A stretch of DNA of 59,473 nucleotides from Candidatus Moraniibacteriota bacterium (GTDB lineage Bacteria > Patescibacteriota > Minisyncoccia > Moranbacterales > UBA1568): assembly GCA_903893925.1 (NCBI GenBank), contig CAITOC010000010.1, positions 1 to 59,473 on the forward strand. The letters run 5' to 3'. The stretch's first letter is position 1. Every line of letters begins with the position of its first letter. Under the pieces are notes generated by a model. That model made no database searches and was not told where the DNA came from. It was given only the letters and a program-made list of their open reading frames with translations. A program made the position numbers and the translations under genes. Below, piece after piece: positions 13,261 to 55,261 of the stretch.

Positions 13261-13416
13261 AGAATCTTCGGAAGAGAAGAAGTCTTTTTTCGGCGTCCGT
13301 AATAGGCTGATTCGGGGTTGAAACTTATCCCAAGGAATGCTACGCTCGATATGGAATATTAAGACTCCCAGTTATCTGTTATTAGTTCTCTGTCGGGAGT
13401 TCTTCCCATACTGCCC

Positions 13417-13467: not shown

Positions 13468-13560
13468 TAAGTTCCCTGTTATCTGTTGCCCGCTCGTCCT
13501 TGCGAACGGGTCCGCGCACTCCGCCACGGAGATGTCGCGGATAAGTTGTCAGTTAAATAT

Positions 13561-15303
13561 ATGCCTTACGACCTCTCCACTGTCCGCCACTCCCTTGCGC
13601 ACATCCTCGCAATGGCCATTCTCAAGCGTGATCCGGGGGCAACACTCGGCACCGGGCCCTCGACCGAGGACGGTTTTTTCTACGATATCCTTTTTTCTGA
13701 GGGACAAAACGTCTCTCCAGACGATTTCAAGTCGATCATCGAAGATATGCGCTCGATCGTGAAAAAGAAGCTCCCGTTCGTCCAAAGATTACTGACCGCG
13801 GATGAAGCTCGGGAGCTCTTCAAAAAAAATCCGTTCAAGCTCGAAATCATCGGTGAAGCCGAGTCACGTGGCGAAGACATCACCATATTTGAGACGGGCG
13901 ATTTCGTCGATCTGTGTGCCGGACCGCATGTCGAGAACACGGGCGACATCGATTTACTCTCCTTCTCACTCAAGGGTCTTGCCGGTGCGTACTGGCGTGG
14001 CGACGAGCAGAATCCGATGCTGGTCCGTATCTCGGGGTTCGCCTTCGAAAACAAGTCCGCCCTCGTCGCGCATCTCGCTTTGCTCGAAGAAGCCAAAAAA
14101 CGCGATCACCGTAAACTCGGAAAGGAACTCAATCTCTTCACCATTTCCCCGCTCGTGGGCGCGGGACTTCCGCTCATGCAGCCCAAAGGCATGATCATCC
14201 GCCAGAAGATCGAAGATCTTCTCTGGAAACTCCACGAGGACAAGGGCTATTCACGCGTCTGGACCCCGCATATCGCGAAGGAAGAGCTCTATGTCACGTC
14301 CGGACATGCCGCCAAGTTCGGCGACGAACTCTTTCGCGTCACAGGCAAGGAAGAACAGTTCATCATGAAGCCGATGAACTGCCCGCACCACATGCAGATC
14401 TTCGCGGACAACCGGTTCTCGTATCGCGATCTCCCGGTCCGCTATTTCGAGCCGGCTACCGTGTATCGTGACGAAAAATCCGGCCAGCTCGGAGGCCTCA
14501 CCCGCGTGCGTGCCATCACCCAAGATGACGGTCATCTTTTCTGTCGTGTCTCACAAATCAAGGAGGAGGTCTCGACTATCGTCTCGATCATCCGGGAATT
14601 TTACACGATCTTCGGACTCATGGACGGGTATTGGGTCTCACTCTCGGTCCGAGGCGAGGATAAGGAAAAATACCTGGGCAGTGATGAGGCATGGGACAAT
14701 GCCGAGAGCGCGCTTGAGAACGCTGCCAAGGAGAACGATCTCAATTACAGACGGGTCGAGGGTGAGGCCGCCTTCTACGGACCCAAGCTCGACTTCATGT
14801 TCAAGGACGCCATCGGCCGGGAATGGCAACTCGCTACCATTCAGTGCGACTTCAACCTGCCCGAGCGCTTCGACCTCTCGTTCACGAACGAAGAGGGCGT
14901 AGCCGAGCGTCCGGTCGTGATACATCGTGCCATCTCGGGTTCGCTCGAGCGGTTCATGGGTATCATGATCGAGCACTATGCCGGTGCATTCCCCTTCTGG
15001 CTTTCCCCGGTCCAAGTCGATATCCTCCCGATCGGTGAGGCTCATCAGGCGTACGGAGCCGAAGTCACGACACTCCTCAAGAAGGCCGGTATCCGTACCG
15101 AACTCCATGCTGAGAACGAATCCCTCGGCAAGCGCATCCGCAATGCCAAAGTCGGCAAAGTGCCGTACTATATCGTCTTAGGCGACGCGGAAGTCACGAG
15201 CCAAACCGTCACTCTCGAAAGCCGCACCGACGGCAAGATCGGCGAACTCTCCCACGACGACCTCCTTACGCGATTTGCAAAGGAAAATATCCCCGCTGCC
15301 TGA
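13561..15303 (+). CDS. thrS: Threonine--tRNA ligase lacking the N-terminal TGS domain
   Basis: ORF trimmed to ATG 13561 (MPYDLSTVRHSLAHILAMAI). Starts at the editing-domain HxxxH motif. Class II core motifs are present (FIMKPMNCPHH, LTRVRAITQDDGHLF, GEAAFYGPKLDF). Confidence 0.92.
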   Translation: MPYDLSTVRHSLAHILAMAILKRDPGATLGTGPSTEDGFFYDILFSEGQNVSPDDFKSIIEDMRSIVKKKLPFVQRLLTADEARELFKKNPFKLEIIGEAESRGEDITIFETGDFVDLCAGPHVENTGDIDLLSFSLKGLAGAYWRGDEQNPMLVRISGFAFENKSALVAHLALLEEAKKRDHRKLGKELNLFTISPLVGAGLPLMQPKGMIIRQKIEDLLWKLHEDKGYSRVWTPHIAKEELYVTSGHAAKFGDELFRVTGKEEQFIMKPMNCPHHMQIFADNRFSYRDLPVRYFEPATVYRDEKSGQLGGLTRVRAITQDDGHLFCRVSQIKEEVSTIVSIIREFYTIFGLMDGYWVSLSVRGEDKEKYLGSDEAWDNAESALENAAKENDLNYRRVEGEAAFYGPKLDFMFKDAIGREWQLATIQCDFNLPERFDLSFTNEEGVAERPVVIHRAISGSLERFMGIMIEHYAGAFPFWLSPVQVDILPIGEAHQAYGAEVTTLLKKAGIRTELHAENESLGKRIRNAKVGKVPYYIVLGDAEVTSQTVTLESRTDGKIGELSHDDLLTRFAKENIPAA

Positions 15304-19177: not shown

Positions 19178-19261
19178 TAAAGTCCTCTACAAAACAGGGT
19201 CGTGAGAGATTCCCTGTTATCTGTTATCTGTTATCTTCTCCCTGCTAACGGTCATCTATTC

Positions 19262-19930
19262 TTATTTGATCGACAAGAGTTCGACATCGAAGATGAGTGT
19301 CGCATTCGGCGGGATAGAGCCCTGGCCGCTCGCTCCATACCCGAGCGATGCCGGGATGGTCAGTTTCCGCTTCTCCCCGACTTTCATATCCAAAAGACCC
19401 TGGTCCCACCCTTTGATCACCATGCCCTGTCCGAGCGTGAACTGAAATGGGGTCCTCCCTGGATTGAGGCTCGAATCGAACTTCGTCCCGTCCGTGAGTG
19501 TCCCCGTATAATTCACGGTGATCGTATCACCGTTCTTCGTCTTCGCATCTCCTGTCCCGTCGGCCGTCTTCTCGATCTGCAGTTCGGTAACCATAGGACT
19601 TGTCTTATTGGTTGATGTCGTCGTATCCGTTCCATTTCCTCCCGATCCGCCGTTGTCAGATGGTTGTGGCACGGGTTGTTCTCCGGAACCACTCCCACTG
19701 TCGGCCGAAACCGTATTCCCGTGTCCGATATCCGTCACCCCGGTGGTACCGGCACTCCCCGCCGCCGCCCCGATCGACCGCGATGCTTGCCCGGTGGTTT
19801 TCACCTCGATCGTACTCCGATTGCCTTTCGATTCATCCGGGAGCAGCCGGCCTTTCCCGGGTGTCCCGACCAGTATCCAGACGACCACAGCGAACGCAAT
19901 CACTCCCAACAAAAGAAATAGTCTGTTCAT
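19262..19930 (-). CDS. FKBP-type peptidyl-prolyl cis-trans isomerase, membrane anchored with G/S/T-rich linker
   Basis: The C-terminal domain reads [71 protein letters not shown]. Confidence 0.85.
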
Positions 19931-19954
19931 ACGCGACTCTTAATATCATAGGAC

Positions 19955-19963
19955 AGTATAGCA
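19955..19963 (-). promoter_or_regulatory. Extended -10 box TGCTATACT
   Basis: It lies 25 nt upstream of the FKBP ATG (19930). Confidence 0.4.
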
Positions 19964-20023
19964 TGAGTTCTCTATAATTAAAATACACGCGGGAAGATTG
20001 GTTCTTCCCGCGTGTATATTTCT

Positions 20024-20797
20024 TCATAATCCGGAATGAGAAGCACTGTTCATCGCCAATTCTTCATACTTGAAATGAGGATCCTTGGTGACATTCCGAC
20101 TCACCTTTTCAGCTATCTTCTTTGGCAATATCCCTATGATATCAGCGTTTTTCAACACAACCTCGGCGATCACGACACTCTCCAACGGCTCGAGGTATTG
20201 GTCAACGTACCAAGTGAGTCCTCCGCCGTTCGGACCGGGGTCACACGGAACCTCGTACCGAATCTTCTCGATTCGTTTGTCCTTCGCCGTTTCCCAGAGA
20301 AATTCGAAGACTGCTTCTGAAATCGCCACGTCCCCCTCTTCCGGCGCGGATCCCTTGCTTGGATTCCTATTCAGGAAACGAACACCGCCGGTATCTTTGA
20401 AACGGACTTCCTGATCGGCGATGGTTATCACACCCTCTTTGATTTCCGCATCAAGATAGGTTCCCTCGGTAGGAGTCGTGTTTTCATCGACCGTCCATAT
20501 CCTTCCACTATCCCGACTTGTCGCATATCGTATCATCTCTTCTCGGACGCTGTTCTGTGCGCTAATAAGCAAATCATACGCATCGGATTCTATCTCGATA
20601 CTCCACGTTTCAGCCTCTCCAGGCGCGAGCCTTTCTATATGGACAGCGATGCATTTCGCGCCTCGCTTATAGAAACTGAAATTGTTTTCATTCACGGTCA
20701 CGTATCCGAGTCGAACCGACATCCCATCAGACAATCCTATCGGCAATTCCGACAGCGCATATTTCTTCCTGACCTTCGGCATCGTATTATCCGACAT
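20024..20797 (-). CDS. CYTH-like (triphosphate tunnel) domain protein with central insertion
   Basis: ORF trimmed to ATG 20797, preceded by AGGAGG with a 6-nt spacer. RKKYALSELP..VRLGYV, KIRYEVP....GLTWYVDQYLEPLESVVIAEVVL and VTKDPHFKYEELA parallel the CYTH pattern (ERKFLV..QGYL, KTRY..WEVDVF.G.L.LAEVEL, VTGDPRYYN). Confidence 0.6.
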   Translation of the reverse strand: MSDNTMPKVRKKYALSELPIGLSDGMSVRLGYVTVNENNFSFYKRGAKCIAVHIERLAPGEAETWSIEIESDAYDLLISAQNSVREEMIRYATSRDSGRIWTVDENTTPTEGTYLDAEIKEGVITIADQEVRFKDTGGVRFLNRNPSKGSAPEEGDVAISEAVFEFLWETAKDKRIEKIRYEVPCDPGPNGGGLTWYVDQYLEPLESVVIAEVVLKNADIIGILPKKIAEKVSRNVTKDPHFKYEELAMNSASHSGL

Positions 20798-23092: not shown

Positions 23093-24616
23093 CTATCGGG
23101 CGAATTCGATTGCTCGCGTCTCACGCATGACCACAACCCGGATCTCTCCCGGGTACTTCAGTTCATCCTGGATCCGATCAGCGATCTCGCGCGCGAGCTT
23201 CGACGCGCCAAGATCGTCGGTTTTCCCCGGATTCACGAATACGCGCACTTCGCGACCGGCCTGGATGGCGTATGACTTCTCCACGGCTGGGAACGAGTTG
23301 ATGAGCGCTTCGAGCTCCTCGAGTCGTTTGAGGTACTTCTCCGCGGTTTCCTTGCGAGCTCCGGGGCGACTGGCCGAGATGATATCCGCCGCCGTGACGA
23401 TCGAGGCCTCGACAGAGGTCTGCGGATACTCGTCGTGATGGCTTTTCATTGCGTCGATAACTTCCTTTTGGACATTGAACTTCTCGAGAATGCGAATACC
23501 GATATTCACGTGCGTCCCTTCGATCTCGTGATCGACTGCTTTGCCGATATCGTGCAACAAGCCGGCTTTCTTGGCTATCGCCACGTTCGCGCCAAGCTCG
23601 GCTGCGAGCGCCCCGGCGATATAGGATACTTCGAGAGAATGGAGGAGGACGTTCTGCTTATAGCTGTACCGAAACCTGAGCCGCCCAAGGATATAGAGGA
23701 GCTTCGGATGAAGTCCCGCGACACCAGCCTCGTAAGCAGCCGCCTCTCCAGCCTCTTTGATCTTCTGATCGATGTCCCGTCGGGCCTGCTCGACGGTTTC
23801 CTCGATACGGGCCGGGTGGATGCGCCCGTCGGCGATAAGCTTCTCGAGTGCGACACGAGCCACCTCACGGCGTACTGGATCAAATCCCGAGATTACGACC
23901 GACTCCGGTGTATCATCCACGATGAACTCGACACCGGTCTCCTTTTCGAGCGCGCGGATATTGCGACCCTCCTTGCCGATAATCTTTCCCTTAATGTCGT
24001 CGGATGGGATTGTGACGGTCGTCGTCGTAAATTCCGAAACGTGCGAACGGGAATACTTCTGGATGACAGTCGCCATGAGATTGAGCGCCCGCTCCTCGAC
24101 TTGGTCCGCCCCTTCCCGTTCGAGCTTCACGATACGTGCGGCGACGGCATCCCGGCTTTCCTCCTCAACGAGACGGAAGACTTCTTTGCTCGCATCTTCC
24201 TTGGAAAGGCCGGCGATATTTTCAAGCCGTTTCAATTCCTCGTTCCGAAGCCGTTCGGTTTCCGTCTGGATCGTCCGAATCTCATCTGCCTTTTTCAGAA
24301 GCGACTGTTTTTCTCGATCCGTTTCCTCGAGGCGCTTCTCAAGTTGTTCTTCTCGTTTTTCCACGCGTCGCTTCTGTTCACGGAATTCCTCTTCCTTCGT
24401 CTGTGATTCCCGCTTCGCCTCATCGAGAATCCCGACCGCCTTGTTCTTGGCGTCGAGCGTTATGTCCGCGACTTTCTTTTCTGCCTCCTGAATCATCTTC
24501 TCCGCCTGGCCTTCGGCGGTGGACAGACTTCCTTTAGCCATCGACTGCCGTGTAAAATACCCCAAGATGGCACCGACCGCAAGGGTGCCGGCAACGATCA
24601 AAAACGTGCTTGTCAT
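23093..24616 (-). CDS. rny: Ribonuclease Y
   Basis: N-terminal TM helix, long coiled coil, KH domain (GKIIGKEGRNIRALE) and HD domain (LLHDIGKAVDHE). Confidence 0.92.
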   Translation of the reverse strand: MTSTFLIVAGTLAVGAILGYFTRQSMAKGSLSTAEGQAEKMIQEAEKKVADITLDAKNKAVGILDEAKRESQTKEEEFREQKRRVEKREEQLEKRLEETDREKQSLLKKADEIRTIQTETERLRNEELKRLENIAGLSKEDASKEVFRLVEEESRDAVAARIVKLEREGADQVEERALNLMATVIQKYSRSHVSEFTTTTVTIPSDDIKGKIIGKEGRNIRALEKETGVEFIVDDTPESVVISGFDPVRREVARVALEKLIADGRIHPARIEETVEQARRDIDQKIKEAGEAAAYEAGVAGLHPKLLYILGRLRFRYSYKQNVLLHSLEVSYIAGALAAELGANVAIAKKAGLLHDIGKAVDHEIEGTHVNIGIRILEKFNVQKEVIDAMKSHHDEYPQTSVEASIVTAADIISASRPGARKETAEKYLKRLEELEALINSFPAVEKSYAIQAGREVRVFVNPGKTDDLGASKLAREIADRIQDELKYPGEIRVVVMRETRAIEFAR

Positions 24617-24837
24617 ACGGAAAGAGGTTCCCGAAAGAGACAGTAGGAGGATAGAGCCGGTTATTCAGCCATCCTCGTCGAAAAACATGAAGAAAAGGAA
24701 TCCGGGAGATGCCCTGGAAAGTTTCGTATAGCCAAACGATAAGAGAATCCGCTTCCTTTCATACGCTTCCGTCCGCTGCCACAAAGGGAGGATACAAATA
24801 GTTAGATGCGGATTCATGATAGCCGACGGGAAACCTT

Positions 24838-24867
24838 TTGTCAAAGCGGAACGTACAATGGTATACT
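24838..24867 (+). promoter_or_regulatory. Promoter: -35 TTGTCA, 18-nt spacer, extended -10 TGGTATACT
   Basis: -35 at 24838-24843, TGGTATACT at 24859-24867. It overlaps the two upstream in-frame ATGs of the gpmI ORF, which argues for a downstream start. Confidence 0.5.
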
Positions 24868-24911
24868 GTGAAATATCGACTCCACAACATTACAAAACTA
24901 AGAAAAAAACT

Positions 24912-26486
24912 GTGTATCGACCGTTCGTACTCATCGTGCTCGACGGATGGGGAGTAAGCAATGTTACTCAAGGAAACCCGATCCGAGAAGCGAAGCTCCC
25001 CACCTTTGAGAAACTCAACCGATTCTATCCGTTTACAACCCTTCAAGCCTCCGGCATCTCGGTAGGACTTCCCTGGAATGTGGTCGGGAACAGCGAAGTG
25101 GGACACATGACCCTCGGTGCCGGCCGGGTCATCTATCAGAGCCTCCCGCGGATAGCCCTCTCCATTCAGGATGGAAGTTTTTCACGCAACCCCGTTCTCC
25201 TCGCCGCTATTGAAAATGTAAAGAAGCGCGGTGGCCGTTTTCATATCATGGGACTCCTCAGTGCTGGATCGGTCCATTCGAACAAGGAACACCTCGACGC
25301 CGTTCTCAAATCAGTAGCCGACGAAGGAATATCCGAAGCGTTCGTACACGTCTTCACAGACGGGCGTGACTCCTCCCCGACCGACGGAGTGGTCCAGATC
25401 CAGATGCTCGAGAAACACATGCGTCTCCTGGGAACAGGACGTATCGCTTCGATTATCGGTCGCAACTGGGCGATGGATCGAAACAATAACTGGGATCGGA
25501 TCGAGAAGGCCTACCGTATGCTTACCGAAGGGAAGGGCGAGCATACGACCGACGGTGCACTCTACGTTGAACAGTCGTACGCCAAGGGCATAACAGATGA
25601 GTTCATCGAGCCCGGCATCGTCTGTGACGCAAACGATGAACCGATCGGCCTCATTCGGGAAAAAGATACCGTTCTCTTCTTCAATTTTCGTGAAGACCGC
25701 GCCCGCGAAATCACCAAGGCGTTCGTCCTTCCGGGATTCCAAAATTTCGAACGAGCGAAGGATCCCGATATCCATTTCGTGACCATGACCGAATATGAGC
25801 GGGATTTGCCTGTTTCCGGCATCCTCTTCCCACCGGAAACGGTCTCAAACTGTCTCGGAGAAATCCTTTCGAACGCCGGGAAGAAACAGCTCCGGATAGC
25901 CGAAACCGAAAAATACGCCCACGTCACCTATTTCTTCAATGGTGGCAAAGAACGCGCTTTCCCCGACGAAGACCGGCTCCTCATTCCCTCTCCGATCGTC
26001 TCCCGTTTCGATGAGGTGCCGGAAATGAGTTCCGGAGAGATAACGGACACCCTCGTCCATACGATAGAGGGCGGAAAATATGATTTCATCCTCACTAACT
26101 ACGCGAATCCGGACATGGTGGCCCACACCGGAAACGAGACGGCGACCATCGAGGCAGCCGAATCGATCGATCGGTGTCTCGCGCTCCTTGTCCCGGCGAT
26201 CCTACGGGCCGGTGGAGCACTCATGATTACCGCCGATCACGGGAACGCCGAAGAGCTCAAGAATTCGGCGACCGGCGAGGCCGACACCGAACATTCCCTC
26301 AATCCCGTCCCCCTCTGGTACATCACGCCTGACAATCACCGGGAAAAGGATGCCGACCTCATGATGCGCGAACAAAATGAGGTTCGTGGCCTTCTCTCCG
26401 ACGTTGCGCCGACGATTCTCGAGATCATGCAGATCCCTCAACCGGCGGACATGAACGGCTCGAGTCTCCTGCCGATACTGCAATAA
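24912..26486 (+). CDS. gpmI: 2,3-bisphosphoglycerate-independent phosphoglycerate mutase
   Basis: RPFVLIVLDGWG, GNSEVGHMTLGAGR, ADHGNAE. The ORF opens at 24816. I prefer GTG 24912 (giving MYRPFVLIVLDGWG) because of the promoter at 24838-24867. ATG 24816 or 24858 remain possible. Confidence 0.9.
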   Translation: MYRPFVLIVLDGWGVSNVTQGNPIREAKLPTFEKLNRFYPFTTLQASGISVGLPWNVVGNSEVGHMTLGAGRVIYQSLPRIALSIQDGSFSRNPVLLAAIENVKKRGGRFHIMGLLSAGSVHSNKEHLDAVLKSVADEGISEAFVHVFTDGRDSSPTDGVVQIQMLEKHMRLLGTGRIASIIGRNWAMDRNNNWDRIEKAYRMLTEGKGEHTTDGALYVEQSYAKGITDEFIEPGIVCDANDEPIGLIREKDTVLFFNFREDRAREITKAFVLPGFQNFERAKDPDIHFVTMTEYERDLPVSGILFPPETVSNCLGEILSNAGKKQLRIAETEKYAHVTYFFNGGKERAFPDEDRLLIPSPIVSRFDEVPEMSSGEITDTLVHTIEGGKYDFILTNYANPDMVAHTGNETATIEAAESIDRCLALLVPAILRAGGALMITADHGNAEELKNSATGEADTEHSLNPVPLWYITPDNHREKDADLMMREQNEVRGLLSDVAPTILEIMQIPQPADMNGSSLLPILQ

Positions 26487-26717
26487 GAAAGGAGGTCACC
26501 AGCATGCCCCGTGACCGATCCTCCAGCTGGCGGGGAGGTTTTACGGGGTCACCAGCCTGCCCCGTAGTCGCATTACGACAGTACAGAGTCACCCGCCCTC
26601 ACTATTGTTTCGTCGTGGAAGAGAAAATCAGGAACGGAAGATGAGACTCGTACAGAAGTAAATTGATTTATTCCAGTTTGCTATTCCGGAGCTATGCTCC
26701 GTCTCAATGCGGTGCTG

Positions 26718-26807
26718 ATACCAAATGAACTGAATCACTGTTACGTTCAGGAGTTCGCCCCGGCATTCGCGGGGCGGACTCCTCCGGTAGCGATATACAA
26801 CACATCA
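26718..26807 (+). repeat. ~90-nt hairpin repeat family, copy A
   Basis: ATACCAAATGAACTGAATCACTGTTACGTTCAGGAGTTCGCCCCGGCATTCGCGGGGCGGACTCCTCCGGTAGCGATATACAACACATCA. An inverted ATTTGGTATC at 26833-26842 mirrors its 5' end. Confidence 0.8.
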
Positions 26808-26844
26808 AGTTATTTCGGCATAATTTAATTAATTTGGTATCACT

Positions 26845-26874
26845 AAAAAACTCCGGCATATACCGGAGTTTTTT
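26845..26874. terminator. Bidirectional terminator between convergent gpmI and clpP
   Basis: AAAAAA CTCCGG catata CCGGAG TTTTTT. Confidence 0.6.
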
Positions 26875-26992
26875 AGAATTCTTTTTTCAGGCCTCTCCCT
26901 TTCCTCGGGCGGGTTCCCGACCCCGTAGAGACGGTATATGCCCCGTCTCTCCACCGACTTTCGACTTGATAGACTTGTGCCTGTTCACTTCT

Positions 26993-27577
26993 TTATGAAA
27001 TCACCTTGTCGACGATACCGTATTTTTTCGCTTCTTCGGCCGTCATGAAGTAATCGCGTTCGGTATCATGTTCGATCTTGGCAAGCTTCTGTCCCGTATG
27101 CTTCGCAAGGATACGATTCAGCCGGTCTCGGGTCTTGAGGATATGCTTCGCATGGATCTCGACTTCCGTCGCCTGCCCCTCCGCACCCCCAAGCACCTGG
27201 TGAATCATCACCTCTCCGTTTGGCAAGATCATACGCTTTCCCTTGGCGCCCGCCGAGAGCAGAAGTGCTGCCGCGGATGCCGCCATACCGACGCATATCG
27301 TCGAGACGGCAGGCTTCACATATTGGATCGTATCGTAAATCGCGAGCGCCGCCGTGACCGACCCGCCCGGAGAATTGATATACAGACGGATATCCTCCTT
27401 CCGGTTCTGCGAATCGAGATAGAGAAGCTCCGCGATGACCGTATTCGCCACGGCATCGTCGATCGGCGACCCGAGAAAGATGATCCGATCCTGCAACAGT
27501 CGGGAATAGATGTCATACGCCCGTTCGCCGAGGCTCGTCTTCTCGACGACTATGGGGACGAGATGCTGGTTATTCAT
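26993..27577 (-). CDS. clpP: ATP-dependent Clp protease proteolytic subunit
   Basis: 194 aa. [36 protein letters not shown]. Confidence 0.93.
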
Positions 27578-27590
27578 ACATTTGGATGTT

Positions 27591-27680
27591 ATACCAAATT
27601 AACTAAATCCCTGTTACGTTCAGGCGTTCGCCCCGGCATTCGCAAGGCGAACTCCTCTGATAGCGATATTCAACACATCA
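27591..27680 (+). repeat. ~90-nt hairpin repeat family, copy B (between tig and clpP)
   Basis: ataccaaattaactaaatccctgttacgttcaggcgttcgccccggcattcgcaaggcgaactcctctgatagcgatattcaacacatca. The reverse complement of its 5' end, extended into the flank, gives TGGTATAAC about 11 nt upstream of the clpP ATG. Confidence 0.8.
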
Positions 27681-30283: not shown

Positions 30284-30504
30284 AGTGTTACTGATATTGT
30301 CACGCTTCCGAATATATCGGAACGCGACACTGTTTAATGACGTATGAATCACACGGAAGCAAGTTGGAGACGGGTCTCTTTTTGAACCGAGAACGGCCCT
30401 CTAAAGAAAAAAGTCCGCTCGCGCGAACTCCGTCACCATCCCTATCCGTATGACCACAGTATAGGGCGAAACGGGACTTCTGTCAAATGGCTGAAGTATG
30501 GATA

Positions 30505-30574
30505 ATACCAAATGAACTGAATCACTGTTACGTTCGGGAGTCGGACTCCTCCGGTAGCGATATACAACACATCA
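30505..30574 (+). repeat. ~90-nt hairpin repeat family, copy C (hairpin tip deleted)
   Basis: ataccaaatgaactgaatcactgttacgttcgggagtcggactcctccggtagcgatatacaacacatca. Confidence 0.8.
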
Positions 30575-30748
30575 CGTTTTATCGGAATACGTTCCACTTG
30601 CAACAATCTTACAAGACCATTACCGGAGCTCACCCCGCCCTTCGTGAAGAGCATGGCGAACTCCGCTCAGATTATTTAGTTGAATAATGCCTTTTAAAAG
30701 CCATAATCCGTCAATTTTTGTCCGATTTTCCATTTTCTCACACATTGA

Positions 30749-33139: not shown

Positions 33140-34093
33140 TTATGCCGTTCCCGAAAGGAGCGCGGTGACAGTGCGGACAACGATGAGTGACAAGACGATG
33201 ACCGCGATACCCATGATTGCGAATTTCACGATACTCTTGGCCGTTTCGGCACGTTTCTCGTCACCTGCGGCGGCAAAGAACATGAATCCGCCGATGACGA
33301 GCATGATCATCGCGAGCAGTCCCGAAACGCCGAGAAGGAAGTTCAGGAGACCCTGGACGATTTCGACCACGGACTTGGCGCTGCTCACCTCGGTCGGCAC
33401 CTGCGCACTCCCCCATCCGAGTACGTCGCCGACCGCCTTAAGCAAAGACGGTGCGACCACGCCGATCGCGAGGCCGATCATCGCCGCGGTAATCATCTTC
33501 TTGGCAGTACCGATCTTCTTCTCATCGCCGGCCGACGTGATATAGAAGATGCCACCGAGCACGAGGAAGAGCAGTGCGAGCCAGACGATGATACCCTGGA
33601 AGGCCGTGAGGAACACCGCCGTCGCCCCCTGGACGGTATCGAATGCGAGTGGATTCGTGAATGTGACGGAAGAAGTGCCTCCGCCCGTCGTGCCGGTTCC
33701 GCAACATATCTGGCTCGCCGAAGTGCAGGTTCCCGATTGTATCGTCAGGCCTCCCGTACAGGTAGTCCCCGTCTGGCATGTCCCCGTACAGGCACCGCCA
33801 ACAGTCCCATAGGTGGCATCATAATTGGCATCGGGGACGGTAGCGAGAGGCGTGGCCGTCACGCCATATTGGAACTTCGGACGACCGGAACACTGTGAGT
33901 TACAAAGCTTCTGCGTATCCTCGAAAGAGGAAGAGTCTACCGTGGTGCCATCGGCCTGCACACAGGCGCAATTCATTCCCGCCGGCATGGTTGCCGCGAA
34001 AGCGGTCATCGGGACGACACCTGAGAAAAGAAAAACGAGCGAACCAAAAAGAAAGAAAGCAGAGCGAACGGATGATGGGATATTTGTATGCAT
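33140..34093 (-). CDS. Fused double T4SS-type (TrbC/VirB2-like) pilin with Cys-rich N-terminal head
   Basis: Signal peptide, then a Cys-rich ~130-aa region (CACVQADGT..CNSQC..), then two tandem two-helix pilin units, each centred on an (S/A)AGDEK(K/R) loop (YITSAGDEKKIGTAKK and FFAAAGDEKRAETAKS). Confidence 0.7.
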   Translation of the reverse strand: MHTNIPSSVRSAFFLFGSLVFLFSGVVPMTAFAATMPAGMNCACVQADGTTVDSSSFEDTQKLCNSQCSGRPKFQYGVTATPLATVPDANYDATYGTVGGACTGTCQTGTTCTGGLTIQSGTCTSASQICCGTGTTGGGTSSVTFTNPLAFDTVQGATAVFLTAFQGIIVWLALLFLVLGGIFYITSAGDEKKIGTAKKMITAAMIGLAIGVVAPSLLKAVGDVLGWGSAQVPTEVSSAKSVVEIVQGLLNFLLGVSGLLAMIMLVIGGFMFFAAAGDEKRAETAKSIVKFAIMGIAVIVLSLIVVRTVTALLSGTA

Positions 34094-34151
34094 ATTTTTT
34101 GATAAAACGTCCCGTAAGAAACGACTGCGAAAAAATATCGACTGGTATCAA

Positions 34152-34583
34152 TCAATAGGTCGTCGTCGAGGAACTTGCCGTGACGAGTTGCTCTATGGTG
34201 TAGACGACTACATAACCGAGGAGCGCGACCGCGACACCGATAATCGCATATTTGATATTCCCTTTTGCTGCTTCGGTCCCCTTCTCATCACCACCGGCCG
34301 TAAGGTATTGGAATCCGGCCACCACGAACATGATGATGGCGATAAATCCGAGCATGCCGAGGAGCCAGTTCATGACATTGGTAATCACCTGTCCCGCCGA
34401 CGTTTCCGGCAGGCCGGTCGACGTGCCGGAGGGGACGCAGACTCCGCCCATGGCAGTACTGTTGGCATCGCAGGTCACCGCGGCAAGAGCGCCGTGCGAT
34501 GCGAGGACCGCCGATACGAGGACCACGAGAGACAGGATACGAAGGCCGATCAGTCTGAGTGTTTTGGTATGATATACGTTCAT
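34152..34583 (-). CDS. T4SS-type (TrbC/VirB2-like) pilin
   Basis: ORF trimmed to ATG 34583 (signal MNVYHTKTLRLIGLRILSLVVLVSAVLASHGALA). Core NVMNWLLGMLGFIAIIMFVVAGFQYLTAGGDEKGTEAAK. Ends ...SSSTTTY. Confidence 0.7.
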   Translation of the reverse strand: MNVYHTKTLRLIGLRILSLVVLVSAVLASHGALAAVTCDANSTAMGGVCVPSGTSTGLPETSAGQVITNVMNWLLGMLGFIAIIMFVVAGFQYLTAGGDEKGTEAAKGNIKYAIIGVAVALLGYVVVYTIEQLVTASSSTTTY

Positions 34584-34643
34584 ATTTTTGTCTTCGATCG
34601 TCATCGACAGATGAAACTTTTTTGCTTGATCGATCCTGTACGC

Positions 34644-34679
34644 AAGGAGTTCGACTCCCTCTTGGGAGTCGAACTCCTT
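34644..34679. repeat. 16-bp-stem palindrome AAGGAGTTCGACTCCC tctt GGGAGTCGAACTCCTT
   Basis: Same arms as 16090-16123. It lies between two pilin genes. Confidence 0.6.
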
Positions 34680-34810
34680 ATAGGTGGTATACGGCAAACC
34701 AAATTATTTTAGCATGGGAGCGATCTTCCCATTCATCATACCGCACGGACAAAAAAAGACAACCCCGCTCATGCGGAGTCGCCCTCTTTTCTTGTTGTTG
34801 CCGACCGGAA

Positions 34811-35212
34811 TCAGTAACTGGTAGTGGCGGTGTTGGCTCCGAGGAGTCCGACCACCGTGTTGATGACCACATACCCGACAAGCGCCACGACGACAGCGAT
34901 GATGGCATACGTCATCATCGTCTTCGCCTTCTCGGTCTTTCCCTCGTCGCCGGCGGCGGTAAGATAGAGGATGCCCGCTATGACGAAAGAAATGATCGCA
35001 CCGATGCCGAGGATTCCCAGCACCCAGTTCATGACGGTAGTCAGGATCTGGCCGATGGAATTCTGAGTCATCCCACTGGAACTTGCCACGGAACTATATG
35101 AACTTCCGGTTCCGGGAACTGTTCCGAATCCATTTGTTTGTGCAAAAACCGATACCGGCGCCGCGAGTGTCGCGACGAGAACGCCATATCCGATTTGTTT
35201 CATTGATTTCAT
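34811..35212 (-). CDS. T4SS-type (TrbC/VirB2-like) pilin
   Basis: ORF trimmed to ATG 35212, preceded by AGGAGGTGA. Signal MKSMKQIGYGVLVATLAAPVSVFA. Core VMNWVLGILGIGAIISFVIAGILYLTAAGDEGKTEKAK. Ends ...NTATTSY. Confidence 0.7.
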   Translation of the reverse strand: MKSMKQIGYGVLVATLAAPVSVFAQTNGFGTVPGTGSSYSSVASSSGMTQNSIGQILTTVMNWVLGILGIGAIISFVIAGILYLTAAGDEGKTEKAKTMMTYAIIAVVVALVGYVVINTVVGLLGANTATTSY

Positions 35213-35255
35213 GCGTTCACCTCCTTTCCGTTTTGTGATTGTTTCGACGCGTTCA

Positions 35256-35540
35256 TCATACCATATCCGCAAGGGTCCGAACAATGATGAGCGCCGTAGC
35301 GACTACCGCCACGCCGATGACCGAATAGATCATAGCCTGCTTCGCCTGTTTCATGGCCGACTCGTTTCCTTGGGACGCAATGTAGAGAAACCCGGACACC
35401 GCGAATGAAAGCATCCCGACCACCCCGACTGCACCAAGGATGAATCCGAGTATGTTCGAGATGATCGTCGAGATCGGGACCGCGTCCTCGATCACGCCGG
35501 CGGCATGAACGACGGTCACGAACGAGAGAAATGCATGCAT
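35256..35540 (-). CDS. Short T4SS-type pilin paralogue
   Basis: 94 aa. ISNILGFILGAVGVVGMLSFAVSGFLYIASQGNESAMKQAK followed by a second helix. Confidence 0.65.
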   Translation of the reverse strand: MHAFLSFVTVVHAAGVIEDAVPISTIISNILGFILGAVGVVGMLSFAVSGFLYIASQGNESAMKQAKQAMIYSVIGVAVVATALIIVRTLADMV

Positions 35541-36971: not shown

Positions 36972-37514
36972 TCATTTGGTCACGAGAAACGCATAGTGAA
37001 ACGCTCCGACGGGCAACTCGCGCGTCTCGGAAAATCCCGCTGCAGCGAGCAATGCGCGAAGTTCGTCCTGAGAAACGCGAGAGTCCTCGTCGGGACCGAT
37101 ATTTCCGATCGAGACCGGCCCCCATTCCATAATGATCGCATGTCCGCCGGGACGGATAATCCGTGCGATCTCACGAATCATGATGTCGCGTTTCTCGTTT
37201 TGGAACAGGACGTCTTTCGCGATTACCCAATCGACACTCGCCGGAGCGAGACCGGATCCGTTCGCCTTCTCGAGATTCGCCCGCTTCGTCACGATATTAC
37301 GGATTCCTTCCGTCTTGATCCTACTCTGTATGGCTTCCAAAGCCGATGGCAGGACATCGATCGCGATCACCTTGCCCTCGTCGCCCATCACCTTGGCGAA
37401 TTCGATGGAAAAATATCCGGCACCGCAGCCGAAATCGACCACCACACCATTTGGTTTTTCCGGTAGGGAACGGATGACCTCTTTCGGATCGACAAATGCC
37501 TTGGACTGGATCAT
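36972..37514 (-). CDS. Class I SAM-dependent methyltransferase
   Basis: ORF trimmed to ATG 37514. VVDFGCGAGYFS (motif I), VIAIDV, IIRPGGHAII. Its stop is 3 nt from the SBP start. Confidence 0.8.
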   Translation of the reverse strand: MIQSKAFVDPKEVIRSLPEKPNGVVVDFGCGAGYFSIEFAKVMGDEGKVIAIDVLPSALEAIQSRIKTEGIRNIVTKRANLEKANGSGLAPASVDWVIAKDVLFQNEKRDIMIREIARIIRPGGHAIIMEWGPVSIGNIGPDEDSRVSQDELRALLAAAGFSETRELPVGAFHYAFLVTK

Positions 37515-37767
37515 AGAGTTTGGTTTCGATATTTCGGAAGACGCATCCGTCCCGCAAGCCGCTCCGACACTTCCATGACCGGATAGTGGACACGTTCTCT
37601 CAAATATAGTACAACAAATAAAGGCGAAATGAAAGGGAGAACGCTTCTCCAACTTCGTAAAGCCGCAAGAGCTTCGCTGAGTTTCAATGGTCTTCTCAGC
37701 TTCCTTGAGAAAAGGGTTGAAAAGGGAGAAATGGGATTCCAAGCAAAAGGGAAAGGGCTCCCGTTTT

Positions 37768-37874
37768 CTGTTGACTGTTCGTTATCGGTTGTTAGTTGTT
37801 AGTTGTGCATTGTTAGTGGTTAGTTATCAGTTGTTAGTTGTTAGTTGTTAGTTGTTAGTTGTCAGTTGTCAGTC
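37768..37874 (+). repeat. Degenerate heptanucleotide tandem array (GTTAGTT / GTCAGTT units, about 13 units)
   Basis: ...gttagttgttagttgtgcattgttagtggttagttatcagttgttagttgttagttgttagttgttagttgtcagttgtcagtc, ending 8 nt before tRNA-Ser. Confidence 0.8.
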
Positions 37875-37882
37875 AAAATATT

Positions 37883-37969
37883 GGAAAGGTGACCGAGTGG
37901 TTGAAGGTACCGCTCTCGAAAAGCGGCAGGCCTGCAAGGGCCTCGAGGGTTCGAATCCCTCCCTTTCCT
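37883..37969 (+). tRNA. tRNA-Ser(CGA)
   Basis: GGAAAGGTGACCGAGTGGTTGAAGGTACCGCTCTCGAAAAGCGGCAGGCCTGCAAGGGCCTCGAGGGTTCGAATCCCTCCCTTTCCT. It has a long variable arm and anticodon loop CTCGAAA. Confidence 0.9.
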
Positions 37970-38072
37970 CAAGTGAACATCATGAACGCGGGAAAGGAGA
38001 AAGCGAACTGCTTCGCTTTCGGGAGGGATGAGAAGGGATTTTTCTTGAAAGGAAAATCCCCGGCCCGAAGGG

Positions 38073-38092
38073 GAATCCCTCCCTTTCCTCAA
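38073..38092 (+). repeat. Exact 20-nt copy of the tRNA-Ser 3' end (T-loop half to +3)
   Basis: gaatccctccctttcctcaa matches 37953-37972. A degenerate third copy lies at 38214-38229. Inverted partners lie at 38021-38029 and 38150-38158. Confidence 0.8.
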
Positions 38093-38232
38093 AAGCGAAT
38101 GACCGTCCCGATCATATTGGGGCGGTTATTCGTTTCTTGTGAGATGGAAGAGGGATTCGAAGGGCAAAGAAAACGTGAACGGTTTCACGTTTCCGGAACC
38201 CCGGCCCGCAGGGGAATCTCTCTCCTCAATAA

Positions 38233-44502: not shown

Positions 44503-44603
44503 AAACATCAGGTATTCTCATTTTCAAGGAGCCTGAAATCCTCTCGGGTATTGATGTCGTAGACCTGTTTTCCGTCACAATTTGTTGGCTGTAATCAGTT
44601 CTA

Positions 44604-44689
44604 ATACCAAATGAACTGAATCACTGTTTCGTTCAGGAGTTCGCCCCGGCATTCGCGGGGCGAACTCCTCTGGTAGCGATATAACACAT
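44604..44689 (+). repeat. ~90-nt hairpin repeat family, copy D
   Basis: ataccaaatgaactgaatcactgtttcgttcaggagttcgccccggcattcgcggggcgaactcctctggtagcgatataacacat. A 14-bp stem AGGAGTTCGCCCCG/CGGGGCGAACTCCT is present. Confidence 0.8.
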
Positions 44690-44729
44690 TAGGTTGTTTC
44701 GGTATAAGTTGTCAGTTGTCAGTCTTCCT

Positions 44730-46253
44730 ATGAACTCTTCCTTCATCCCGACGCCGGTCCTCGGTATCCTCGATACGCTGAAAACAAGCGGTTATCAGGC
44801 GCATATCGTCGGTGGCTGTGTCCGAGACCTCTTCTTGGGACGCGAGCCGAAAGATTGGGATATCACCACGGATGCGAAGCCCGAGAAGGTCCTTACCCTT
44901 TTCCCGGACAGTTTCTACGAGAATGATTTTGGTACGGTCGGCGTCAAAGTCGAGCCCTTCCATAAGGATCGCCGACCGGATCGCGAGCACGACGTAATCG
45001 AGGTCACGACGTATCGGACGGAGTCGTCCTATTCGGACCGGAGACGGCCCGACCACGTCGAGTTCGTCACGTCGCTTACGGAAGACCTTTCCCGACGTGA
45101 TTTCACCATGAATGCGGTCGCCCTCGAAGTCAGGAACCAAGATTCCTCGTCCGAAGAAAAAAGTCGTCCGGTCGACATCGTCGATCCCTTTCACGGACAA
45201 GACGATATCCGGGATCGGCTCATCCGGACCGTTGGGAACCCGGAACAACGCTTCGGTGAAGATGCTCTGCGCATGATACGGGCCATACGGCTCTATGCCG
45301 AACTCCGCGAACCAGGAGTGGAGAATGGAAAAGGCTGGGAAATCGACGAATCGACCGTCGCGGCAGCAAAAAAACATGCCGGACTTCTTTCTCATGTCTC
45401 ACGGGAGCGTGTCCGGGACGAGTTCTCGAAGATTATCCTTTCCGGCAGTCCAAGTGAAGGCGTGGAACTGCTTCGGACGACCGGCCTTCTCTCCGACATC
45501 GTTCCCGAACTCGAAGAAGGGGTCGGCGTCGGACAGAACCTGCACCATACCTTCACCGTCTATGAACACAATCTCCGTGCATTGGAACACTGCCCCTCAC
45601 GCAAGCTCGAAGTCCGGCTCGCCGCACTCTTGCACGATATCGGCAAGCCCAAGACAAAACGCGGGGACGGCTATCGTTCGACCTTCTACAATCACGACCA
45701 TGTCGGAGCCCGCATGACGCGTGCGATCCTTGTCCGACTCCGATATCCCGTCGCGGTGATCGAGAATGTCACGATGCTCGTGGACAATCATCTCTTTTAT
45801 TACAATGTCGGCGAAGTGACCGAAGCATCGGTCCGACGACTCATCCGACGCGTCGGGCTCGAAAACATGAAGGATCTCATGGATGTCCGGATCGCAGACC
45901 GGCTCGGATCCGGGGTTCCGAAAGCGAAGCCGTACAAGCTCCGCCATCTCGAATACATGATCGACAAGGTTTCCAAGGATCCCGTCTCAGTAAAGATGCT
46001 TGCGGTGAACGGCTCGGATCTCATCAAGGAGCTCGCTCTGGCGCCCGGACCGAAAATCGGCGCCATACTCGACGTACTCCTTTCGGAAGTAATTGAAGAT
46101 CCGATACAAAATACCCGCGAGATTTTGCTTGGGAGAGCGAAAGATCTTTCAAACGAGAATCTCGAAACACTTCGCGAACGGGCGAAGGAAGTCATCGAGG
46201 AAAAACGCGATGAGGACGATAAAGACATCAAGAACCGACATAAGGTGGCATAA
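44730..46253 (+). CDS. cca: CCA-adding tRNA nucleotidyltransferase with HD domain
   Basis: ORF trimmed to ATG 44730. HIVGGCVRDLFLGREPKDWDITT, RRDFTMNA, LLHDIGKP. Confidence 0.85.
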   Translation: MNSSFIPTPVLGILDTLKTSGYQAHIVGGCVRDLFLGREPKDWDITTDAKPEKVLTLFPDSFYENDFGTVGVKVEPFHKDRRPDREHDVIEVTTYRTESSYSDRRRPDHVEFVTSLTEDLSRRDFTMNAVALEVRNQDSSSEEKSRPVDIVDPFHGQDDIRDRLIRTVGNPEQRFGEDALRMIRAIRLYAELREPGVENGKGWEIDESTVAAAKKHAGLLSHVSRERVRDEFSKIILSGSPSEGVELLRTTGLLSDIVPELEEGVGVGQNLHHTFTVYEHNLRALEHCPSRKLEVRLAALLHDIGKPKTKRGDGYRSTFYNHDHVGARMTRAILVRLRYPVAVIENVTMLVDNHLFYYNVGEVTEASVRRLIRRVGLENMKDLMDVRIADRLGSGVPKAKPYKLRHLEYMIDKVSKDPVSVKMLAVNGSDLIKELALAPGPKIGAILDVLLSEVIEDPIQNTREILLGRAKDLSNENLETLRERAKEVIEEKRDEDDKDIKNRHKVA

Positions 46254-46497
46254 GGACCGTAGGGAGTCGAAAGTCCGTAAAGTCTCTAAGAGCCTATCCC
46301 AATAGGGTCTAAGCCGAAAATACGGTTTGTCGTCTGAAATCCGAAAATTTCGGCTGTAAACCCTTCAAACCTCCTCGGGTTAGTTAGTAGCCCTCGACGA
46401 TTTTTAGTGTTTTTCACCCAGAGGGTGACCAACCTCTGGTTGGCGCTCAAACGAAATGTACGGATTTCAGTTCTCCCCTTCCATTTTTTCGGAAACC

Positions 46498-54402: not shown

Positions 54403-54585
54403 AGATTCCGTTTATATTCATTTCTTCGTTCCTCAACTCGTGACTTCGTTCCCGTTGTAAGTAATAAGTGGTCAGTTGTCAGTTTTTTGACTTTCGCCCT
54501 CGTAAAGCCTCTCCGACTCGGCCACGGGGCATGTTTTTGACTTGCGACCTTACGGACTTTACAGACCTTGTGGACTTTCAACTCC
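54403..54585 (-). repeat. Oriented intercistronic module (GACTT array + 35-nt conserved hairpin core + GTCAGTT heptamers), copy 1
   Basis: The core 54497-54532 matches 55169-55203 with 3 mismatches by eye. GAC starts fall at 54539, 54546, 54555, 54564 and 54573 (spacing 7, 9, 9, 9). Confidence 0.7.
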
Positions 54586-55120: not shown

Positions 55121-55261
55121 GTAGTCTTCATTTCCTCGTCCCCGTTGTCAGTTGTCAGTTCACTCTCGACCCCGTAAACCTCTCCGACTCGGTCACGGGG
55201 CATACTTTCGACTGTATAGACTTTATTAACTTCGTAGACTTTCAACTCTGTTCCCTTGTTC
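55121..55261 (-). repeat. Oriented intercistronic module, copy 2
   Basis: cccgttgtcagttgtcagtt...ccccgtaaacctctccgactcggtcacggggcat...gactgtatagactttattaacttcgtagactttcaactc. GAC/AAC starts fall at 55210, 55219, 55228 and 55237 (9-nt spacing). Confidence 0.7.

Follow-up and report, generated by a model that had tools for sequence, protein, structure and literature searches.

What is a run of about a dozen degenerate heptamers doing directly in front of a tRNA gene? The question is raised by a locus within a 59,473-nt stretch of DNA, the whole of which is called the window here. The heptanucleotide array occupies positions 37766 to 37874 of the forward strand. It opens with the GTT-phased, pyrimidine-rich units TTCTGTT, GACTGTT, and ATCGGTT and continues as approximately 12 units of the GTTAGTT/GTCAGTT type, ending in GTCAGTT and GTCAGTC at position 37874, for a total of about 12 to 13 units. 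Tandem Repeats Finder assigns positions 37788 to 37873 a period of 7 with 12.3 copies and a score of 116, and it also offers a period-21 reading of positions 37776 to 37873 with a score of 124. Sequence reading places an A/T-rich 8-nt spacer, AAAATATT, at positions 37875 to 37882 of the same strand, and AATAT-type spacers of this kind stand upstream of many tRNAs in the genome. The mature 5′ end of tRNA-Ser(CGA) follows at 37883, the gene extending to 37970 on the forward strand according to both ARAGORN and Rfam. An earlier, sequence-only reading of the window, which had described an array of about 107 nt and 13 heptamers ending 8 nt before tRNA-Ser, is thus borne out in period, array end, and tRNA start.

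At gathering thresholds, Rfam recognizes only tRNAs in the whole window, and a consensus scan of positions 37450 to 38150 returns no sigma-70-like site; nothing in that interval pairs a −35 hexamer, at a spacing of 16 to 18 nt, with a −10 hexamer that has A as its second and T as its sixth base. The 286-nt region around the array has no structure beyond that of its shuffles (z = +0.34), and no array on the opposite strand lies within 300 nt of it. Immediately upstream, a purine-rich leader segment (37700 to 37765, forward strand) is approximately 95% identical to the leader of tRNA-Ser(GGA) on another contig (C76), where only 3 units follow. Most likely, the array is an unstructured, GU-rich part of the tRNA precursor leader that is removed by RNase P, and not a promoter, operator, or switch.

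The array is a member of a large family. The genome consists of 1.18 Mb in 88 contigs, with 51.5% G+C and 98% completeness, and the ThrS encoded in the window is 88 to 91% identical to proteins of Candidatus Moranbacteria/Moraniibacteriota MAGs. Period 7 dominates the tandem repeats that Tandem Repeats Finder detects genome-wide, with 208 arrays against 44 and 88 at periods 6 and 8, respectively, and 76 of the 208 are built from the unit family GTNAGTT (complement AACTNAC). A pattern search that allowed one mismatch per unit recovers 152 GTNAGTT arrays of at least two units and 104 of at least three, the longest having 15; the ten longest in the genome include those at C70 7779-7876, C54 4839-4943, and C45 2643-2719. 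The same search finds 27 and 1, respectively, in the reversed genome, and 18 to 28 and 0 to 1 in three order-5 Markov simulations. The exact 21-mer made of three GTNAGTT units occurs 95 times in the genome and never in the reversed control. The most frequent phased word is GTT every 7 nt, which is essentially absent at periods of 5, 6, and 9. On their inner side, arrays usually continue as pyrimidine-rich GTT-phased units (CCCCGTT, CCCTGTT, ATCTGTT), which constitute the CTGTTAT family. A common flanking element was considered and rejected, as an all-against-all BLAST of 200-nt flanks returned only neighboring arrays and a few paralogous pairs.

The arrays are almost entirely intergenic, and their placement in the spacers is strongly polar. 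Gene calls outside the window come from a crude codon-usage ORF caller and ARAGORN tRNAs, with Pfam verification of 20 start-adjacent genes only. Polarity was scored on the 80 intergenic arrays of at least three units that have a neighbor on both sides. In 56 of these, the 3′ end of the GTNAGTT strand lies within 16 nt of a gene boundary, where uniform placement in the same spacers predicts 10.9, and the 5′ end does so in only five. The median distance to the gene boundary is 8 nt for the 3′ end versus 116 nt for the 5′ end (sign test, p = 1e-10). The 56 boundaries are made up of 32 opposite-strand stop codons, 19 start codons, and 5 tRNA 5′ ends, so that on the sense strand of the neighboring gene, the arrangement reads stop-(AACTNAC)n or (GTNAGTT)n-start. 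Eight times, the last unit contains the stop codon (AAC TGA C). The proposal that the arrays recur next to gene starts therefore holds for 24 of the 56 gene-abutting arrays, those at a start codon or tRNA 5′ end, but it captures only part of the picture, as the other 32 sit at stop codons. One cluster has a different setting: six GTNAGTT arrays, spaced approximately 40 nt apart, lie antisense inside a predicted 1191-codon ORF (23813-27388) at positions 24300 to 24528 of contig C38 of this genome (G000).

Arrays characteristically stop 5 to 11 nt short of a start codon or tRNA 5′ end, and the distances of start-adjacent arrays range from 5 to 16 nt. These distances depend on correct start codons, which are right, as the Pfam domain alignment begins at residues 1 to 6 of the predicted protein in most start-adjacent genes. 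The Pfam-checked genes encode proteins of replication and DNA maintenance (DnaE, DnaX, SMC, RuvC, DprA, and a ParA-type ATPase), of translation (ribosomal protein S7, a translational GTPase, SerRS, ThrRS, another class II tRNA synthetase, the CCA-adding enzyme, YchF, and RsmH), and of energy and cofactor metabolism (ATP synthase gamma and epsilon, NifU, and the PFOR beta subunit), together with a YgjP-like peptidase and one protein without a family match. No functional theme emerges among these 20. Five of the 44 tRNA genes have an array that ends 6 to 11 nt before the mature 5′ end, three of them tRNA-Ser, and their presence argues against a function in translation only. Base composition at the variable position N is not different in start-adjacent and stop-adjacent arrays (p = 0.44); on these grounds, the idea of a spacer rich in stop codons was rejected. 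An explanation by replication strand was likewise set aside, since GTNAGTT lies on the C-rich strand in 77 of 104 arrays, the orientation of genes has the same 3:1 ratio, and in a fragmented MAG the two effects are inseparable.

The window contains several shorter arrays, and all of those reported in the sequence-only reading are present in the sequence. Two units, ATAAGTT and GTCAGTT, lie at positions 13541 to 13554 (forward strand), 6 nt before the thrS ATG at 13561, as the 3′-terminal part of a repeated 65-nt double-hairpin module. The module, which has nine copies in the genome, extends upstream of the thrS array over positions 13483 to 13540 on the same strand, and it has no Rfam family at gathering score. 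It is often followed by the 14-mer ATAAGTTGTCAGTT; two tandem copies precede a tRNA-Ala gene on contig C30, and the module is also found inside the tRNA-Ser inserts of two related genomes (G001 and G004). Three units (ATAAGTT, GTCAGTT, and GTCAGTC; 44704 to 44724, forward strand) precede the cca ATG at 44730. They had been placed immediately before that codon; they are indeed close to it, but 5 nt intervene. Elsewhere on the forward strand, CTGTTAT, a pyrimidine-rich GTT-phased variant, is repeated 3.3 times at 19214 to 19236, near the stop end of a minus-strand gene (19262-19930). Four units (GTAAGTA, ATAAGTG, GTCAGTT, and GTCAGTT) lie within an intercistronic repeat mosaic at 54457 to 54484, and two GTCAGTT units lie within a second such mosaic at 55147 to 55160, both on the forward strand. 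Short GTT-phased pyrimidine-rich runs occur at 13369 to 13395 and 13474 to 13490.

A promoter-like element upstream of thrS (13318 to 13346, forward strand; TTGAAA or TTGATA, 17 nt, TACGCT) is conserved across genera and stands approximately 190 nt upstream of the array, which therefore probably lies in the 5′ leader and not in the promoter. The leader carries two units in this genome and four, four, three, and none in four related species. Wherever the array is present, it ends 6 to 9 nt before the ATG, a position kept in four of the five species. The cca array and an adjoining 107-nt MITE-like repeat occur in this genome only, when compared with the two orthologous spacers recovered (G001 and G004), and the last bases before the cca ATG (ttcct) are conserved in those spacers. 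The 14-mer ATAAGTTGTCAGTT that the thrS and cca arrays have in common occurs 11 times in the genome in unrelated contexts: at thrS it is the 3′ end of the double-hairpin module, at cca it comes after the MITE-like repeat, and elsewhere it abuts stop codons or precedes the gene for SMC. It is a common array terminus and not a site specific to translation genes.

The MITE-like repeat is an abundant element in its own right. It measures approximately 107 nt, with ATACCAAAT...ATTTCGGTAT as its inverted termini and a GC hairpin at its center, and gives 69 BLAST matches in the genome, including copies in the window at 44598-44712, 26712-26826, 27591-27678, and 30503-30593. Many copies are at contig ends, and the repeat is nearly absent from sister species. 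A link to the heptamer arrays was considered and rejected: an array is found within 200 nt of only five of the 69 copies, and so the two families are independent.

Comparison of paralogous and orthologous sites indicates how the arrays change. Over 95 nt, the leaders of tRNA-Ser(CGA) and tRNA-Ser(GGA) match at approximately 95% of positions, but the first carries about 13 units and the second about 3. Along 19.6 kb of contig C38, an array of eight units here corresponds to four in the closest species, with conserved flanks. Larger differences are also seen, as two junctions with 245-nt array-bearing spacers in this genome measure approximately 10 nt in G002 and G004, and at one C38 junction the inserts of different species have similar arms and different centers. 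At one C38 junction, two species have GTNAGTT units and others have unrelated heptamers. In every species, the syntenic C38 DNA contains 4 to 19 arrays of period 7 versus 0 to 2 of period 6, 8, or 9, and yet the prevailing unit is AACTNAC in four species, AACAGGG in G005, AAAGAAT in G008, and AAATTCG in G002. The conserved property is the 7-nt step and not the unit sequence, and a conserved period with species-specific units points to a mechanism at the DNA level instead of a sequence-specific regulator. The exact three-unit 21-mer occurs 0 to 33 times in eight other species of the genus, being present in seven, and it is seldom found among the 32 genomes from other genera; most genomes give 0 for the reversed pattern used as a control.

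At the tRNA-Ser locus, two species have no array and a distance of approximately 25 nt from a conserved TATAGT motif, while other species have one to four units along with partial tRNA duplications. The locus is a hot spot of rearrangement, both in the window, where the 3′ end of tRNA-Ser is duplicated approximately 100 nt downstream (38066-38090), and at the loci of relatives (L091, L093, L094, and L095). In G001, G004, and G008, copies of 15 to 20 nt of the tRNA 5′ end flank inserts of 95 to 130 nt that end in a heptamer array, and G007 and G008 have a truncated tRNA-Ser copy with an insert of approximately 36 nt in the T-loop.

Exact-protein look-ups find the species in hundreds of assemblies. 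In a strain that is 99.86% identical, the rpsL-rpsG repeat hairpin is unchanged, and two other assemblies have the same 13-unit tRNA-Ser array. The lack of length change among these three near-identical assemblies means that the arrays are not hypervariable on the shortest time scale. In one further assembly, the tRNA-Ser intergenic region is 35 nt (5 × 7) shorter, which is suggestive, being known from interval length only. A metagenome scan for strain variants matched only the MAG's own source contig, at 100% identity. As to the view that array length is likely to vary by slippage, whole-unit change is borne out between paralogues and between species, thrS and the C38 array included, and no length change was seen within the species as sampled by the three assemblies. 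One scaffold (L157; ENA ERZ18624244 scaffold_162) is interrupted precisely at the tRNA-Ser array by a gap of 100 N with duplicated array ends, so that arrays of this family disrupt or mislead scaffolding from short reads.

About a third of the arrays (35 of 104) have an opposite-strand partner within 300 nt, the other two thirds being single. In 22 of 25 pairs, the order is AACTNAC-gap-GTNAGTT, such that the arms face outward and abut a stop and a start codon. The two arms of a pair fold in register: each unit contributes six base pairs and a single mismatch, which falls at the free position, and folding energies are well below those of shuffles (z of −3 to −5.8 for most). The spacer between rpsL and rpsG illustrates the layout: the stop codon is followed by 5 nt, four AAC-type units, 62 nt, four GTNAGTT units, 10 nt, and the ATG. 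The genome also contains seven genes matching PF05635 (S23p, "23S rRNA intervening-sequence protein"), several of which are bracketed by inverted tandem arms of 7- to 9-nt units, namely ATAAAGTC/GACTTTAT, GTTAACGG-type, and AACTTAC/GTNAGTT. The AACTTAC/GTNAGTT arms surround a PF05635 gene inserted between the ATP synthase beta and epsilon genes (atpD and atpC; G000 contig C38, 27947-28515), and this insertion with GTNAGTT arms is kept in five species of the genus. Across 41 relatives, the number of PF05635 genes has no clean relation to the number of arrays; arrays occur without any PF05635 match in G008, and the reverse holds for G026 and G039, with 13 matches but no GTNAGTT array. A hairpin-armed layout like that of intervening sequences (IVS) is a feature of other arrays of the family and not of the tRNA-Ser array.

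The explanation that we consider probable is that the tRNA-Ser array belongs to a slippage-prone, lineage-specific family of heptameric simple-sequence repeats, GTNAGTT, produced by a DNA process that advances in 7-nt steps regardless of sequence and carried in leaders and intercistronic spacers. The excess of period 7 and the length change in whole units are both those of the generic class of heptameric long simple-sequence repeats. Under this model, repeats with a constant GTT every 7 nt would colonize gene junctions in this Moranbacteria genus, and replication slippage or unequal exchange, with 7 nt as an inherent step, would both create the arrays and alter their length. The generating process would act at the DNA level and be indifferent to unit sequence. 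Arrays are presumably transcribed within leaders and intercistronic spacers, given that some lie inside the atp and rpsL-rpsG operons and another lies downstream of the thrS promoter-like element. Selection on the last 5 to 11 nt before start codons and tRNA 5′ ends may then set the bounds of the arrays. A purely neutral slippage model does not by itself account for the strict polarity, with the GTNAGTT 3′ end toward the nearest gene, or for the regular hairpin pairing.

Among the alternatives, the arrays as a family could be outward-facing terminal arms of small foldback-type insertion elements that target CPR gene junctions, some with an S23p/Avd-like gene, with single arrays as their remnants. 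The outward-facing, folding pairs that abut stop and start codons speak for this, as do the PF05635 genes within inverted arms, the five-species atpD-atpC copy, and the whole inserts with like arms and differing centers that are present or absent at junctions of approximately 10 nt. We nevertheless regard it as unlikely, since two thirds of the arrays are single, their flanks have no element in common, neither a transposase nor a target duplication was identified, length change by whole units is what slippage typically produces, and PF05635 matches and arrays occur without each other in G008, G026, and G039. That the tRNA-Ser array in particular is the decayed half of such a foldback-type or IVS-like hairpin element, with or without a gene for an S23p/Avd-like four-helix bundle, is improbable on the same evidence. 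It is also unlikely that the arrays help translation to start, with an unstructured GU-rich run before the start codon serving as a standby or S1-type landing site for ribosomes in a genome that does not use Shine-Dalgarno sequences. No Shine-Dalgarno peak is found before start codons genome-wide, even though the 3′ end of the 16S rRNA keeps CCUCC; instead, start contexts have T at −1 in 59% of genes and are A-rich at −5 to −11. A landing site would fit the 19 arrays that end 5 to 16 nt before the starts, Pfam-verified, of core genes, the thrS array kept 6 to 9 nt before the ATG in four of five species, and the U/C-rich leaders that array-less orthologues have in the same place. It does not fit the same arrays before five tRNA genes, the larger number that abut stop codons in the complementary sense, the sister species that lack arrays upstream of the same genes, the use of different heptamers at the same site in different species, or the like composition of units in start and stop contexts.

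Regulation of transcription or expression by the arrays finds far less room. The suggestion that the shared 14-mer is a promoter or operator of thrS and cca is not supported, because the thrS promoter-like element is far upstream, the cca array is absent in G001 and G004, ATAAGTTGTCAGTT recurs in unrelated contexts, the scan of the tRNA-Ser array region found no sigma-70-like site, and the start-adjacent genes are diverse; such arrays are lacking at cca and at tRNA-Ser in two relatives each and are not confined to a functional set of genes. More generally, an array or its terminal ATAAGTTGTCAGTT could supply −35/−10-like hexamers (TTGTNA, 18 nt, TNAGTT) or bind a regulator of translation-related genes. 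The fixed 5 to 11 nt to start codons and tRNA 5′ ends would suit leaderless transcripts, and T at −1 with A at +1 is frequent. This promoter mimic, worked out by hand, was nevertheless dropped, as the last unit is usually TCAGTT or TGAGTT, without the essential A at position 2, and the thrS promoter is conserved upstream. Many arrays also face the 3′ end of a convergent gene, and tRNA-Ser has no array in two relatives. We give a promoter or operator hardly any credence. It is just as doubtful that slippage of 7-nt units turns a neighboring gene on or off within the population. In favor of such a switch are a unit length not divisible by 3, the change in copy number over evolutionary time, and the tRNA-Ser interval that is shorter by 35 nt in one assembly. 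The neighbors, however, are essential housekeeping genes and tRNAs instead of surface or restriction genes, the arrays lie outside reading frames, and they are identical in length in the three near-identical assemblies of other strains. As a separate observation, −10-like boxes occur approximately 20 to 35 nt upstream of many starts.

A slippage-prone simple-sequence repeat has precedents in other phyla. The closest described system is the family of TAACTGA heptamer direct repeats found in marine Beggiatoaceae, some Cyanobacteria, and Bacteroidetes, with 169 sets in the larger BOGUAY genome and a proposed role as a ribosome standby or S1-type landing site (MacGregor 2015, PMC4679880). Almost every descriptive property is in common. 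Both consist of tandem 7-nt units, with roughly a hundred sets or more in a genome, are almost all intergenic and orientation-biased, often end a few nucleotides before a start codon without a ribosome-binding site, and precede essential genes without a functional theme. Indels in 7-nt steps between close strains are a feature of the TAACTGA repeats, and the arrays here also change by whole units. The TAACTGA unit differs from the complementary unit here, CAACTNA, by one fixed mismatch and a free position, the third of GTNAGTT. The orientation is opposite: the TAACTGA strand itself runs toward the start codon, whereas in the arrays described here CAACTNA is read after stop codons and starts have the complement, GTNAGTT, in front of them. 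The arrays described here also abut more stops than starts, a third of them are in inverted pairs, and the host phylum is Patescibacteria.

The arrays had also been likened to the short tandemly repeated repetitive (STRR) heptamers of cyanobacteria, which are known from Calothrix PCC 7601, as cited in PMC4692102. This comparison holds up, as the arrays behave as heptanucleotide simple-sequence repeats whose length changes in whole units, and like STRR sequences they form intergenic, lineage-restricted tandem arrays, approximately 100 per genome. The host phylum differs, the arrays here being from a Moranbacteria MAG, and the STRR units of heterocystous cyanobacteria differ from GTNAGTT in sequence. 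We know of no description of strict polarity toward gene ends for STRR repeats. The heptamers GGGAATC of Xanthomonas and GGGGA(C/T)T of Nostoc are intergenic simple-sequence repeats of mostly approximately four units, for which slippage with a step the size of the polymerase footprint has been proposed (Rehm et al. 2015, PMC4692102), and heptameric long simple-sequence repeats are over-represented in many bacteria (Mrazek 2007, as cited in PMC4692102). The Xanthomonas and Nostoc units are G-rich and quadruplex-capable, unlike GTNAGTT; here only the inner AACGGGG-type units of some arrays could form such structures. The heptanucleotide promoter repeats of hmw1A and hmw2A in Haemophilus influenzae are adhesin contingency loci whose copy number varies between strains and within populations (PMC12721329, PMC8262952). 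The resemblance lies in tandem 7-nt units outside the reading frame of the affected gene, and the difference in the housekeeping neighbors and the lack of observed strain-level variation here. IVS of 23S rRNA with S23p/PF05635 share with this genome the PF05635 genes within inverted tandem-repeat arms, one with GTNAGTT arms, but the elements here are in protein-gene junctions and not in rRNA, and the tRNA-Ser array has neither a partner arm nor an enclosed gene. No description of heptamer arrays in Patescibacteria was found in the literature searched. As simple repeats that change fast, the arrays are of a type described before in cyanobacteria and sulfur bacteria.

Heptamer repeats are an old and unexplained feature of several bacterial phyla, and here the question can be approached concretely, through the strict polarity with which the arrays point to gene ends and through the hairpins that run from stop to start. 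A genome of 1.18 Mb tolerates approximately 100 arrays before the starts of core genes, such as those for DnaE, S7, ATP synthase subunits, and tRNA synthetases, and before tRNAs, and arrays in such positions cannot be strongly inhibitory. If the arrays were insertion-element arms, the arms would pair on the mRNA and bring a stop codon and the next start to the base of one stem. Within essential operons, such a stem would couple the translation of the two genes that it bridges, or it would serve as a site of RNase III processing. There are practical effects as well: TTG starts within arrays inflate ORF calls, arrays supply the stop codons of their neighbors, and scaffolds are broken. Two further features of this DNA are of a different kind. 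A repeat family of approximately 220 nt has many copies here and in G005 (for example, 46311-46473 on the reverse strand of the window and 19816-20040 on G000 contig C38), and on the reverse strand of the window at approximately 33140-35540, four consecutive small genes match PF18895 (T4SS pilin) beside genes for a solute-binding protein and a methyltransferase.
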